Below, piece after piece: positions 19,814 to 32,000 of a stretch of 32,000 bases of DNA. The stretch is from Synechococcus sp. A15-24 (GTDB taxonomy: Bacteria > Cyanobacteriota > Cyanobacteriia > PCC-6307 > Cyanobiaceae). The notes below the pieces were generated by a model. That model had not been told where the DNA came from, searched no databases, and saw only the letters and a program-made list of their open reading frames with translations. The stretch spans positions 210,001 to 242,000 of the forward strand of contig NZ_CP047960.1 of assembly GCF_014280195.1 (NCBI RefSeq). Reading direction: 5' to 3'. Within the stretch, counting starts at the first letter, position 1; every line of letters starts with the position of its first letter. The position numbers and the translations under genes were made by a program.

Positions 19814-20623
19814 CTATGGGCGTGACTTCATCAGAAAGGTCCTGCTTGAGGTAGTTGTGCAGCACTGGATGCTGGGTCTGTCGTCCTGAAACAACAGTTC
19901 GGCAAGACGTCGCTTGCGTTGGCGGACCGCTGGATCGATGCTGTTCAGGTTGGTGCGGGTCGTCGTGGTTGGGTTGCGTTGGATGGGTGCTGTTGTCGCT
20001 TTGGGTTGTTGCTTTTGACCGTCCGGTAGCTCTGAGATCAGGGCGTTTTGAAGCTCTGTCTGCCGGGTGGTGATGCTGGTGAATGGAATCACCAGACAGG
20101 GAATGTTGAGAGCAGCGCAGCGGTCGATCCAGCCATCGATCAGGTTCTGAATCAATGGCAAGTAGCGCACAGCCAACAGCTCAAACCGCTCGGAAGGATT
20201 GAGATCCTGAAAGTGGGATAAGCCCTCGATGCGGTTGATCAGCTTGGGGTCAATCGGACCGCTACCCCTGTCGCAATGGGCGATCAGGGAGCAGACCAAC
20301 TGTCCCAGCGGACGGATGGGGATGCAGCAAACCGCTGGTTGGTAGCGGCGGGCGATCCGTTTGAGGTTCAGGCGCGTGGGCAGGTAATGGCCGTAGACCA
20401 GTGCCGCCTTAGGAGGTCGCTTTAGGCCGCTGTGAAACCGCCACCGCTCCAAACGACGCACAGCATCGATCTTCAGGCTCTGATGAACATCACCGTCCAT
20501 GGCAGGCCTGTCTAAACCGGGAGGCATTAGGGCTTCCACCAGGGCCGTCAGGGTCTGGCTAGCGGTTTTGGGAGGTGCCGGGATTAGAACCGCCGGCGCT
20601 GTCCAGGGGTGGACGCTCACCAT
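19814..20623 (-). CDS. hypothetical protein, sulfotransferase-like (Sulfotransfer_2-type motifs)
   Basis: LIPAPPKTASQTL resembles a 5'-PSB loop (PKT[AG][ST]). CIPIRPLGQLVCSLIAH resembles the 3'-PB R-x-P-x3-R/Q-x3-S motif. ATG 20623-20621 sits one base upstream of the preceding stop TGA 20619-20617 (ATGgTGA), so the two reading frames overlap by 7 nt. Confidence 0.4.
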   Translation of the reverse strand: MVSVHPWTAPAVLIPAPPKTASQTLTALVEALMPPGLDRPAMDGDVHQSLKIDAVRRLERWRFHSGLKRPPKAALVYGHYLPTRLNLKRIARRYQPAVCCIPIRPLGQLVCSLIAHCDRGSGPIDPKLINRIEGLSHFQDLNPSERFELLAVRYLPLIQNLIDGWIDRCAALNIPCLVIPFTSITTRQTELQNALISELPDGQKQQPKATTAPIQRNPTTTTRTNLNSIDPAVRQRKRRLAELLFQDDRPSIQCCTTTSSRTFLMKSRP

Positions 20624-21809
20624 TTCACCTGCCAGGGCCAGCGATCCGGTAGGCACATGAACTGATCCCCGCCGATGCAGTCCTCAAGTCGCAGGATGCG
20701 GTCGTCGATGAAGGATTCCCCAACGACCGCCAGCGCGGGGAGCAGGGCCCAGGCGCAGCCCTGACGGGCAGTCCAGACCATCAGGGACAGCATCCAGAAC
20801 AAACCGATCGGGTCCAGGCAGCGACTGAGGATGGGTGCCAGGACTCCTGTAGCCATGGATAGCTGGATCAGACCCAGCAGCAGGCTGTAGGCAAACAGCG
20901 TCCGCGCATCGTGATCGGCGGCCATGGCGGCGGGCCTCAGCCGGGCTCGCCAGATGGTCAACGCCACAGCCACCAGAGCGGACAGCTCAAGTCCGAACAC
21001 CGCTTTGCGCAGTCCGTAGGTGTTGAAGTATCTGGCCTCAAACAGTTAGCTGCTCAGCTTCTCAATCAGTGCGGGCTGACTGAGGGCGATGCCGATGCTC
21101 ACCATCACTAGCAGGCTGGCCAGAGTGATGGTTCGCCGGCCTGTGTTCTGTAGCAGCCCTGGACGGGTCAGAACGGGGACCAGGGCCAGGGTCGTTGTGA
21201 TCGGAAGACTGTTATGAGCCAGGGCAGAGCCAGCGACGGCGGCGGCAACCCAGCCCCAACCGATCTGGCACCAGCCGGCGACGCGCAGCAGCAGGGGAGT
21301 GATCAGCACCGTGGCCAGGGCCTGGCGGGTGACACCGTTCTGCAGGAAGTTGCGGAGCAAGGGGGACCACAGCACCAGCAGGGCCCAGAGGCCACCCCAC
21401 TGCGGTCGCTGTGTTGCCCTCGAAAGCATGAGTGGCACCACGGCATACCCAACCGCCACGAGTCCATGCAGGCTCGCCAACCGGTAGGGCAGAGCACTGA
21501 TCAACGGGGCTGCCGCAATCCAGAGCGGTTCATCCAACACATCACGGGGGTCAATCGCCAGGTAACGGCTGAAGCGGGTGATGTCACTGGTGCCCCAGTT
21601 GGCCAGGGTGAAGAACAGCGTGCTGAGTGCCACCAGACCAGCGGCGAGACACCACCAGCGGCGAGACACCACCAGCGGCGACCCAACCACCCCATGCAGG
21701 TCGCCAGCAGCAGTTGCCCGATGGCCAGGGCCAGCATTGCTTCGGGATTTGTGGTGACCTGATCAATCCGGTAAGGCGCCTCGCTGGGGAAGCTCAGCAG
21801 CAGGGTCAT
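20617..21809 (-). pseudogene. disrupted polytopic membrane protein (about 12-13 TM; Wzy/WaaL-like or GT-C-like), broken by a 17-bp tandem duplication and an in-frame TAA
   Basis: Three track ORFs (21501-21809, 21046-21690, 20617-21000) join into one frame of 392 codons. Removing one 17-bp repeat copy gives 1193-17=1176 nt, which is 3 x 392. Reading through TAA 21043-21045 completes the join. RRWWCLAAG is encoded in both overlapping frames. ATG 21809 overlaps the upstream stop as ATGA. Confidence 0.65.
21638..21681. repeat. 17-bp tandem repeat, 2.6 copies (CCAGCGGCGAGACACCA x2 plus CCAGCGGCGA)
   Basis: Direct reading gives copy 1 at 21638-21654, an identical copy 2 at 21655-21671, and a partial copy at 21672-21681. 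Confidence 0.95.
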
Positions 21810-22849
21810 GGCAACGCTCCACGCAACACCCGAGCCATGGTCTCGGGTGTTCGCACCTGGGAGAACCCCCAGAAGGGCTCCAGCAGTGACCGAATGGCCT
21901 GTTGATCGTCACCGCAGGCCTTCAGCGTCTCCCCCAGTTCCTGACGGCAGCTCCATTCGATCTGTTCCCGTTCCTGTTGTTCCGTGGAGAGGGAGGAGAG
22001 GTCCTGGTGGCTGTTGACTTCCAGCCAATGCAGACGCCGGTTACATGCAACGGCGTAACCCAGGTGGGTGCCGAAACTGTTGCTGGCCAGGCCGTCGCAG
22101 AGCTCCAGCAGGGTCCGCATGCTGTCCAGGAACCAGGGATTGGAGCGATGACCATTGCAGGCCTGAATCCAGTCCGGCGGCAGGGGCAGCGATTGAGGGT
22201 CTTGCCAGTGCCGCAGCCAAATCACCCGTTGGTATCCCTGTTCTTGGCAGAGACGCTGCAGGGCGGTGATCGCGCCAGAGCAGTCGTTATGCCGTTGAAC
22301 AGATCCCCAGCTGTGGGCCAGCACCACCAGCAGCGTGCTGCCCAGCTCATGCCGCAGTTCGCGGATTGTTTCGGCTGCCATCACCGGGCGTGCGTAGGCG
22401 ATCCAAGGGCCGATCGGGATGGCCGGGCGTTGATGCCGTTCTGCGATCCAGGCTGCTCGCCTGGGACCCATGCACAGATATCCCTGGCTCCAGGGTGTCG
22501 GCGGTTCGAATTCGGCCTCGCGGCTCACTTTCAGTCCATGCTCCAGCAACCACGGCAATGGCCGACCCACCAGCGGTAGACCGGCATGGCGCTTGAGCTG
22601 GATGTCGTGCCCGTAGTGATGGGAGGCGTTATCCCGTTCCCGCCGTGAAGGAGAGCGCAGGCTTTGATCCGGAGCCTGCCACTGCCCTTGGATCCAGAGC
22701 GATGTGGCTACAGCGGGATTAAATGGCCGGGCAACGAACGCCTGGGATACCAGGCCGCGGTAGCCCTCCAGGGCTAACCACTCGTTGGCATCAGGCCAGT
22801 GGGGCCGGCTGCTCCGCAGCAGGCTGCGCAGCGACCAGCGGATGCTCAA
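21806..22849 (-). CDS. hypothetical protein translationally coupled to kdsA (possible GT-B-like glycan-assembly enzyme)
   Basis: The frame is open through to 23083, but 22850-23083 overlaps kdsA and encodes Pro/Arg/Gly-rich junk. There is no ATG until far downstream. A TTG at 22849 overlaps the kdsA stop as TTGA. The C-terminal pattern [10 protein letters not shown] ... [22 protein letters not shown] loosely resembles nucleotide-sugar transferase C-domains. Confidence 0.5.
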
Positions 22850-30797: not shown

Positions 30798-30858
30798 GTT
30801 CGCCCCAGCACTTGGGTTCGATTGAGGAGGGGCACACCTTCGTCTCCCTCCCGATCAC

Positions 30859-31704
30859 TCAGTGCACCGAACACCATCGACTAGCGGTCGGCCAGAGCTG
30901 GTTGAGGTCAAGTTCCGGGCAATGGAGCTGCACGGCCGCCAGGGTCGCCTCTTGCCATTGCCCCAGCTGCTTCAGCAGCTCCTCTGGCAGGTCCGTGTCG
31001 GTGCGGCTCACATTCACCCGTTGTTCCCACTGCGGTTCCTGGTACCGCACCCCGAGGAACCGGCAGAGCTCAGCCCAGCAGTCCCGATGGAACAGCTGCT
31101 CGTAAGTGCCGATGAAGCACTGCTTCAGGCCGAAGCTGTCCTGAAGGACCGTGAGGGTGTGGCCGTAGTCACTGCGCAGATTGATCCGTTCGGGGCGCTC
31201 GCGGCAGAGATCGCGCAGGGCCTGGATTTCGCCGGCGCTGTCCTGCAGCCCCTGCTTGCGCCGTTGCATGCGCAGGCTGGAGACGATGCGCTCGATCGGG
31301 TCCCGCATCAGGAACACCGGTCGCAGTGGAACCCCCTGGTCTTCGAAGCCAGTGCGAATGGTGAGCAGGGTGGCGGCGCTGAGCCCGCAGTAGGAGGGTG
31401 TGATGTCCCCGGTGAGTTGGATTCCCGGACGCCGCAGCAGCCTGGCGAAGTAGGCGTAATACCGCTCGGGGCGTTCTAGGAAACGCTGGCGACGCCATGT
31501 ACGGGGTTTCAACAAAGACCGTCGGCTGCGGCCGCTGAAGCCTGCGGCCGGCAGGGTGAGCGCGTCATGGATGTGGTACTCCTTCAAGAAGCCGAAATCA
31601 GCGTCCCGGCGTTGGTTCAGCTGAGCGTGCAGCCAGGACGTGCCAGCCTTCTGGGCCCCGAGCCCCAGCAGGAACACGCCAGGGGCGTCAGTCGTTGCGG
31701 TCAC
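30859..31704 (-). CDS. sulfotransferase family protein
   Basis: VFLLGLGAQKAGTSWLHAQL matches the 5'-PSB motif (K-x-G-T-[ST]-W) and VFLMRDPIERIVSS matches the 3'-PB motif. GTG 31704 overlaps the kdsC 3' end by 17 nt; an alternative GTG lies at 31677. Confidence 0.75.
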   Translation of the reverse strand: MTATTDAPGVFLLGLGAQKAGTSWLHAQLNQRRDADFGFLKEYHIHDALTLPAAGFSGRSRRSLLKPRTWRRQRFLERPERYYAYFARLLRRPGIQLTGDITPSYCGLSAATLLTIRTGFEDQGVPLRPVFLMRDPIERIVSSLRMQRRKQGLQDSAGEIQALRDLCRERPERINLRSDYGHTLTVLQDSFGLKQCFIGTYEQLFHRDCWAELCRFLGVRYQEPQWEQRVNVSRTDTDLPEELLKQLGQWQEATLAAVQLHCPELDLNQLWPTASRWCSVH

Positions 31705-32000
31705 GCCAACCCCTCCGGCTCAAGCTGCGCCAGCCATCGCGAGCTTGAAGGATCCGTTCCGCTAGCTCCCGTACGGCCCCATGACCGCCGCGGCGCGCGA
31801 GCACCAGGTCGGCGCCCCGGCGCACGGGAGCGCAGGCATCGGCGGGCGCCAGAAGCAGACCCACCACTGGTCGCACGGCCAGATCATTGAGATCGTCGCC
31901 GACAAAAACGGTCTGCGAAACGGTCACCCCCACCTGCTGCTGCAGGGTCTGCAGGGCAGCGGGTTTGTCCTTGATGCCCACCAGGCAGTGTTGGATGCCC
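31688..32000 (-). CDS. kdsC: KDO 8-phosphate phosphatase, HAD family (5' end outside window)
   Basis: The frame stays open to the window edge (GIQHCLVGIKDKPAAL). VFVGDDLNDLAV is the HAD motif and GGHGAVRELAERIL is the KdsC C-terminal signature. Confidence 0.8.
   Translation of the reverse strand, partial: GIQHCLVGIKDKPAALQTLQQQVGVTVSQTVFVGDDLNDLAVRPVVGLLLAPADACAPVRRGADLVLARRGGHGAVRELAERILQARDGWRSLSRRGWRDRND

Follow-up and report, generated by a model that had tools for sequence, protein, structure and literature searches.

Within a 32,000-nucleotide stretch of the Synechococcus sp. [quoted passage not shown] The Kdo genes are genuine and are translationally coupled to these tailoring genes. 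Their clustering is not due to chance; it recurs across loci centred on kdsB in related genomes, and the layout is the normal architecture of picocyanobacteria, including Synechococcus, Cyanobium and some Prochlorococcus. From gene content and order, we consider the chances about even that this is a picocyanobacterial locus for CMP-Kdo supply and tailoring, joined to a neighbouring cluster of GT genes and an MsbA-like exporter, and that the whole may build an envelope glycolipid of the lipopolysaccharide (LPS) type. That it is a conserved locus for a sulfated, Kdo-containing glycan is plausible.

The system spans 19.8-32 kb of the window, whose base composition (~62% G+C) matches marine Synechococcus, and is arranged in three units of opposite orientations. 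The first, on the minus strand, runs from kdsA through a gene of unassigned family (UNK) and a membrane-protein gene to a ‘sulfotransferase-like’ gene (STL). The second, on the plus strand, comprises pcrA/uvrD, the sulfotransferase gene ST1, the small GT gene GT8L and kdsB, with katG next; the third, again on the minus strand, consists of kdsC, which reaches the window end, and then the sulfotransferase gene ST2. An earlier note on this DNA had placed kdsA, kdsB and kdsC in three separate units with overlapping tailoring genes, and both gene identities and direct reading of the sequence bear out these positions and the two overlaps it described: TGATG at 27758-27762 combines the GT8L stop with the kdsB start, and the GTG start of ST2 (31704) overlaps the kdsC stop (31690-31688) by 17 nt. 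Further overlaps join kdsA to UNK (TTGA, 22849-22846), UNK to the membrane-protein gene (ATGA, 21809-21806) and the membrane-protein gene to STL (ATGGTGA, 20623-20617). An 8-nt overlap joins the pcrA stop to the ATG of ST1 (26155), which makes pcrA the probable first gene of the second unit. The start of the GT8-like gene is corrected to GTG 27050. The protein that the earlier note saw after kdsA is present, but has about 347 amino acids (22849-21806) rather than the 425 of a longer open reading frame (ORF).

Three of the four genes for CMP-Kdo synthesis lie in the window. The kdsA gene (22846-23700, minus strand), which heads its unit and encodes Kdo-8-phosphate synthase, scores above the KdsA equivalog cutoff over its full length (NCBIfam NF009109, 511.4 bits against 457) and also matches TIGR01362 (368 against 314) and Pfam DAHP_synth_1 (1e-67). 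The CMP-Kdo synthetase gene kdsB (27760-28539, plus strand) is similarly well above its cutoffs (TIGR00466, 181.4 against 155.2; NF003952, 316.2 against 193). The Kdo-8-phosphate phosphatase gene kdsC (31688-32000, minus strand) is represented by its C-terminal 103 residues, for which the best NCBIfam match is KdsC (NF007019); this fragment scores 59.5 bits against a TIGR01670 cutoff of 106.95 because it is cut by the window end, and the full-length orthologues of two related loci (L004 and L001) reach 139 and 134 bits against 107. The kdsC family also scores highly against KDN-9-P phosphatase models. The arabinose-5-phosphate isomerase gene kdsD was not found within the window, so the Kdo pathway, which the earlier note had called complete, is incomplete here. 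Since a KpsF/GutQ-family SIS+CBS protein gene (253 bits against 203.7) is found directly upstream of kdsC in relatives (30 loci), kdsD probably lies just past position 32000, and the pathway is probably complete in the genome as a whole.

Two genes of the locus encode sulfotransferases of the type dependent on 3′-phosphoadenosine-5′-phosphosulfate (PAPS). ST1 (26155-27024, plus strand) belongs to Sulfotransfer_3 (PF13469, 41.7 bits against a gathering score of 27), and its PDB matches are the CurM sulfotransferase and TPST1/2. GLGHSGST and RD.RSW.HS are invariant in its family, and the 3′-phosphate-binding motif is conserved as RDVRSWVHS. For ST2 (30859-31704, minus strand), the window copy falls just below thresholds (PF00685, 21.8 bits against 22; PF13469, 18.9 against 27), but 10 of 12 family members match Sulfotransfer_3 (best E 7e-6) and 9 of 12 match Sulfotransfer_1. 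The family invariants GAQKAGTSWL and RDPxER..S appear in the window copy as AQKAGTSWL and MRDPIERIVSS, and all 12 sequences aligned keep residues K19, G21, S23, R134 and S142. The protein is named ‘sulfotransferase’ in the public genomes of WH8103 and MIT S1220. The window copy clusters at ≥90% identity with clade III proteins from WH8103, BOUM118 and RS9915, and the best 120 matches of a family profile search are all close picocyanobacterial sequences. The alignment of ST1 with ST2 by hhalign is weak because the underlying alignments are shallow. Of the three sulfotransferases that the earlier note counted within 12 kb, ST1 stands by its Pfam score and ST2 by family matches and motifs, whereas the third, STL, shows motif resemblance only. 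Catalytic-domain models are the only ones matched by ST1, ST2 and GT8L, and all three proteins are taken to be putatively cytoplasmic from their sequences and from general knowledge. PAPS is made in the cytoplasm; its supply genes cysC, cysN, cysD and cysQ were not found within the 32-kb window.

GT8L (27050-27760, plus strand) encodes a small GT-A glycosyltransferase resembling families GT8 and GT24. Its PF01501 score is 24.5 bits against a gathering score of 24.3, over just 71 residues, it carries a DCD motif, and a phage homologue is annotated as GT24. In the cyanophage S-SCSM2R (host WH7803), the phage's own kdsB and kdsA are preceded, two genes upstream, by a GT8L homologue (L086, 209814-213339), and in the pelagiphage Mosig a homologue of 54% identity lies one gene from a Sulfotransfer_2 gene (47 bits; L087, 124832-129333). 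Irrespective of the host loci, the cyanophage copy connects GT8L with Kdo supply and the pelagiphage copy connects it with sulfation. No family matches were obtained for the neighbouring phage ORFs (SSCSM2R_262/263 and Mosig_00185/187/189), and a megablast comparison of the region with phage genomes returned zero matches.

Conservation of these pairings was examined by tblastn across 80 loci centred on kdsB, drawn from marine Synechococcus and Cyanobium/Vulcanococcus with a few from Prochlorococcus. In 36 loci, nearly all of the marine ones, GT8L and kdsB are neighbours. The gene immediately downstream of kdsC is ST2 in 10 loci, and 5 loci have ST2 immediately after kdsA. The gene before ST1 belongs to GT4 in 14 loci and is pcrA in 7; in 6 loci ST1 is itself followed by GT8L(-kdsB). 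Loci with one of the two sulfotransferase genes almost always have the other as well, and L004 has two copies of each. Selection on kdsB biases such a sample towards kds neighbourhoods; for that reason, look-ups were also begun from ST2-family proteins, and 4/4 fell in a kds neighbourhood. These comprise a locus with kdsA, a gene for a 599-residue protein and ST2 facing ST1; a locus with kdsD-kdsC-ST2 facing kdsB-GT8L; a locus with kdsA-ST2 facing three further sulfotransferase genes (four in total; L092, 6001-9414); and the locus of WH8103. An unannotated protein of ~600 residues recurs after kdsA in L088, L091 and L004. Because the host loci and the ST2-started look-ups agree, the linkage of Kdo genes to sulfotransferases is real, old and modular. 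The comparison upholds the pairing of kds with tailoring genes and shows that the arrangement is not peculiar to this genome. It also narrows the claim of a specific pairing with sulfotransferases, which fits ST2, with kdsC or kdsA, but not ST1, for which no specific pairing with kds genes is seen; and although the pairing is conserved, the sulfotransferases are accessory.

Adjoining the Kdo genes is a further conserved cluster (10764-19788, plus strand; Pfam and NCBIfam assignments) of genes for a GT-B-like GT, an MsbA-like fused ABC exporter (11872-13689, ABC_membrane plus ABC_tran), three GT4 proteins and a GT2-like protein of 618 residues. The same string of GT and exporter genes is found in L082, L084 and L088. 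The MsbA-like fusion is the only transporter in the window, where a KpsMT-type ABC-2 transporter and KpsE/D were not found. In the scheme that we propose, KdsD, KdsA, KdsC and KdsB, whose gene identities are established, would produce CMP-Kdo, and, on the cytoplasmic side, a transferase unlike WaaA would attach Kdo to a glycan carried on a lipid. GT8L, nearly always co-transcribed with kdsB, would add a neighbouring sugar, and the soluble PAPS-type pair of ST1 and ST2, an accessory present in some strains only, would O-sulfate the glycan before the neighbouring MsbA-like ABC protein exports it. Such a glycan would lie on the cell surface, vary between strains, be strongly anionic through its carboxylate and sulfate groups, and have a role in phage and grazer recognition. 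We infer that sulfate and Kdo would be carried by the same glycan.

The scheme meets a discrepancy over the destination of Kdo. WH8103 has the gene order kdsD-kdsC-ST2, then pcrA-ST1-GT8L-kdsB read in the opposite direction, then kdsA; it shares 94.5% nucleotide identity with window positions 22874-28540, and its proteins are 96-97% identical for ST1, GT8L, KdsA and KdsB and 92% for ST2. WH8103 is described as a close, syntenic relative of WH8102 (PMC4559175), the LPS of which is reported to be without Kdo and heptose (PMC4515613, citing Snyder et al. 2009), and cyanobacteria have been reported to have only lpxA/C/D/B, with no lpxK, waaA or Kdo transferase (PMC3087551). Given the reports of Kdo-free LPS and the lack of any WaaA-like sequence in the loci analysed here, the conserved CMP-Kdo pathway is without a known destination in this lineage. 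This mismatch is the most interesting aspect of the locus, and it depends on extending the gene content of WH8103 to WH8102.

Several observations weigh against a sulfated Kdo glycan as the product. The LPS of WH8102 and CC9311 is described as Kdo-free and sulfate is not mentioned (PMC4515613). The earlier note had raised the presence of waaA as a check, and tblastn with E. coli WaaA returned nothing below E 0.2 in the window and 1.33 Mb of related loci. No window ORF has a Capsule_synth Pfam match that would indicate KpsC/S, and no known-family Kdo transferase was found in the window by tblastn, hhalign, QxxxD and HP motifs or Pfam. The sulfotransferases are missing from L002, L012, L013, L016, L024 and L026, all of which keep all kds genes, so sulfation is not obligatorily tied to Kdo. 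The 5′-phosphosulfate-binding motif of ST1, GLGHSGST, has His in ST1 and in all 13 aligned orthologues, at a position that is Arg/Lys in characterised Sulfotransfer_3 enzymes, and the nearest solved relatives of ST1 act on tyrosine and polyketide, not sugars.

Among the alternatives, the one that survives best, though we hold it to be unlikely, is that Kdo and sulfate reside on different molecules, with adjacency reflecting a shared, recombination-prone cell-surface island. The kds genes would then feed one glycan, for example as a minor LPS core residue, and ST1 and ST2 would sulfate a separate acceptor, whether another polysaccharide or a lipid, peptide or metabolite. Such an island would fit sulfotransferases that vary while the kds genes stay constant, the more frequent position of ST1 behind a GT4 gene (14 loci) than before GT8L-kdsB (6), the kinship of ST1 with tyrosylprotein and polyketide sulfotransferases, and the interleaving of housekeeping pcrA and katG; it fits poorly with the stop/start overlap of kdsC and ST2, the direct succession of ST2 to kdsA in relatives, the outcome of the ST2-started look-ups (4/4), and the position of GT8L beside kdsB in one phage and beside a sulfotransferase in another.

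Improbable, in our judgement, is a purely canonical LPS inner core, in which Kdo would join lipid A to the core through a WaaA-type enzyme encoded elsewhere, the sulfotransferases would be peripheral decorators of the O-chain, and the reports of Kdo-free LPS would reflect loss of acid-labile Kdo during analysis. Kdo is indeed present in some cyanobacterial LPS, namely that of Anacystis, Spirulina and Microcystis (PMC4515613), and an MsbA-like exporter and core-type GT4 genes adjoin the locus. Set against this are the report of cyanobacteria without a Kdo transferase, the failure to find any WaaA-like sequence in the window or the related loci, and the structure of WH8102 and CC9311 LPS, in which a glucose chain occupies the position of Kdo in enterobacterial LPS (PMC4515613).

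Returning to the sulfated Kdo glycan, a bolder form of this reading is possible, although we think it doubtful: marine Synechococcus, including the clade III model strains with reportedly Kdo-free LPS, might make an undetected sulfated Kdo envelope glycan or glycolipid using a Kdo transferase of a new family. That product might be a determinant of phage and grazer interactions, remodelled by the GT8L-KdsB-KdsA set of cyanophages. The candidate transferases would then be GT8L, with its coupling to kdsB, and members of the GT-B-like family of UNK.

UNK (21806-22849, minus strand) encodes 347 residues with no Pfam match at E ≤ 0.01, the Elm1 family model included, and without an SRRT motif. Its AlphaFold2 (AF2) model (predicted local distance difference test, pLDDT, 88.8) suggests a GT-B-like fold, as the top Foldseek matches in the PDB are all GT-B enzymes, at a template modelling (TM) score of ~0.3. 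The family is large and unannotated (997 cluster representatives) and may merit a family definition of its own. Distant members of note are P0158, P0170 and P0265. Some members lie C-terminal to a Wzy_C O-antigen-ligase domain (P0158 and P0170 contain one), a single member carries a weak Sulfotransfer_2 domain by fusion, and another a methyltransferase. A role as a WaaA-type Kdo transferase was rejected by hhalign against E. coli WaaA (probability 0.4%), and a role as a retaining Kdo transferase by the lack of conserved QxxxD and (K/R)xHP in the UNK alignment. With these negative results and generic GT-B matches at that TM score, UNK as a Kdo transferase stays speculative.

UNK is followed by the same membrane-protein gene in L081, L082 and L084 and in Cyanobium kdsA-kdsC-UNK-membrane-protein operons, and the two are read as a strain-variable, putative transferase/ligase-type pair. 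The membrane-protein gene (20617-21809, minus strand), a polytopic protein with at least six hydrophobic segments, is a pseudogene in A15-24. Its frame is shifted by a tandem duplication of 17 bp (plus-strand unit ACCAGCGGCGAGACACC, array at 21637-21681; Tandem Repeats Finder period 17, 2.6 copies), and it also has a nonsense codon (TAC to TAA at 21048-21046), whereas the 96%-identical contig L081 has a single intact ORF of 391 residues. Assignment as Wzy or WaaL was rejected, as Pfam and NCBIfam gave no match and hhalign detected no resemblance to the Wzy_C portions of P0158 and P0170; the Wzy_C fusions of the UNK family are the sole remaining hint of such a role. STL (19814-20623, minus strand; 269 residues) has a frameshifted 3′ end, where a 1-nt deletion between 19867 and 19866 (CAAGTG to CAGTG, relative to P0121, P0122 and L093) replaces the C-terminal ~18 residues and shortens the product; its homologues continue to a stop equivalent to ~19765. 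The earlier note had counted STL as a probable sulfotransferase, a proposal that the evidence does not sustain. The family is narrow (12 detectable homologues), its likeness to sulfotransferases ends with the motifs PPKTASQTL and R104-x7-S112, no relevant Pfam match appears at E ≤ 10, hhalign probabilities against the ST1 and ST2 families are <1%, and the AF2 model (pLDDT 33) is unusable.

UNK, the membrane protein and STL thus appear to form a strain-specific cassette, partly inactivated here by the three lesions in its last two genes, which leaves part of the first unit pseudogenised in this genome. WH8103 lacks the cassette and has in its place a GT2 gene and a UNK paralogue (41% identity). 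With three lesions in two adjacent genes and the neighbouring genes intact, the surface-glycan cassette seems to have been genuinely inactivated, perhaps under selection by phage or in culture. That the whole locus is inactive or decaying in this strain, and no such glycan is made, is very improbable, for the damage (duplication, nonsense codon and deletion, in successive genes of the kdsA unit) is confined to a cassette not found in WH8103, and the kds genes, ST1, ST2 and GT8L are full-length, with KdsA, KdsB, ST1, ST2 and GT8L retaining 92-97% protein identity to that strain.

The remaining genes of the window bear less directly on the system. The pcrA/uvrD helicase gene (23769-26162, plus strand; UvrD-helicase 2e-89, UvrD_C 3e-79) is housekeeping. 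The catalase-peroxidase gene katG (28608-30797, plus strand; peroxidase 5e-70) sits between kdsB and ST2 but lies outside the glycan system; it is not found at the corresponding position in WH8103 (L094) and occurs in 5/84 related loci, indicating that some lineages have this housekeeping gene as an insertion in the glycan locus. Upstream, a gene for a PgfS/ArnC-like polyprenyl-phosphate glycosyltransferase (6566-7549, plus strand) adjoins one for a GtrA-YdjC fusion protein (7524-8711, minus strand), a pair that hints at an extra, lipid-carrier-based route of periplasmic glycan modification nearby. A low-GC stretch lies within 1866-5048 (GC 0.41 at 2001-3000, compared with ~0.62 elsewhere) and may be horizontally acquired DNA; its ORFs at 1866-2498 (minus strand, 210 residues) and 2994-5048 (plus strand, 684 residues) have no Pfam match. 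No tRNA genes were found in the window.

Picocyanobacteria dominate ocean photosynthesis, and phage adsorption, grazing, aggregation and acidic polysaccharide release are all controlled by the glycans on their surface. According to reviews, cyanobacterial LPS is Kdo-free and cyanobacteria have no Kdo transferase, whereas a full CMP-Kdo pathway is conserved in Synechococcus, Cyanobium and some Prochlorococcus, usually with sulfotransferases in the same operons, and is intact in WH8103, a near relative of the strain that served for the reported Kdo-free LPS structure. This leaves a concrete gap, consisting of the destination of Kdo, the enzyme that transfers it and the state of sulfation. The phage-borne GT8L, kdsB and kdsA genes and the pair of GT8L with a sulfotransferase add an angle from infection biology. 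The advance would be moderate rather than categorical, because the genes are already annotated publicly and the chemistry has precedents in other marine bacteria; interest would be greater with a demonstration of a new Kdo transferase or of a sulfated Kdo glycan outside LPS.

The locus can be compared with several known systems. Rhizobia provide a likeness of function, as Sinorhizobium LpsS and Mesorhizobium KpsS are cytoplasmic PAPS-dependent sulfotransferases acting on LPS or Kdo-rich capsular polysaccharide, in gene organisations for LPS and K-antigen sulfation unlike that of the window. The canonical route to Kdo2-lipid A (WaaA, family GT30) shares the KdsD-KdsA-KdsC-KdsB steps and a nearby MsbA-like exporter, and differs in that no WaaA homologue was detected in the window and related loci. 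In Acinetobacter, the GT-B Kdo transferase KdoT works independently of WaaA and once bore the annotation ‘Elm1-like’; it sets a precedent for Kdo transferases among unannotated GT-B proteins of ~35-40 kDa (PMC12856342). UNK, likewise unannotated and GT-B-like and found next to kdsA or kdsC, resembles KdoT by description, and has neither the Elm1 match nor the SRRT motif. In E. coli, group 2 capsule loci contain kpsF and kpsU, paralogues of kdsD and kdsB, and encode the retaining beta-Kdo transferases KpsC and KpsS (PMC12887879, PMC10148158), enzymes of families GT99, GT107 and GT140 being marked by a QxxxD nucleophile motif and a (K/R)xHP CMP motif (PMC12887879). They share with the present locus a CMP-Kdo supply placed inside a surface-glycan locus, and the kdsD of relatives is of the KpsF/GutQ family; unlike them, the window has no KpsC/S, no QxxxD or (K/R)xHP in its candidate transferases and no KpsMT ABC-2 transporter, and the E. 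coli capsule is without the sulfation proposed here. Marine Cobetia make sulfated, Kdo-containing capsular or O-polysaccharides from known gene clusters, so that Kdo, sulfate esters, sulfotransferase and Kdo-synthesis genes come together in one glycan locus of a marine bacterium (PMC11766843). The Cobetia clusters contain a group 2/3-type capsule system (kpsSC, kpsETMD, wcb) and PAPS-synthesis genes, none of which is in the window, whereas A15-24 has an MsbA-like exporter and sulfotransferases interleaved among the kds genes themselves. The Cobetia polysaccharide is the closest chemical precedent for the proposed glycan, and kpsF/kpsU in the group 2 capsule loci of E. coli are the closest organisational one.

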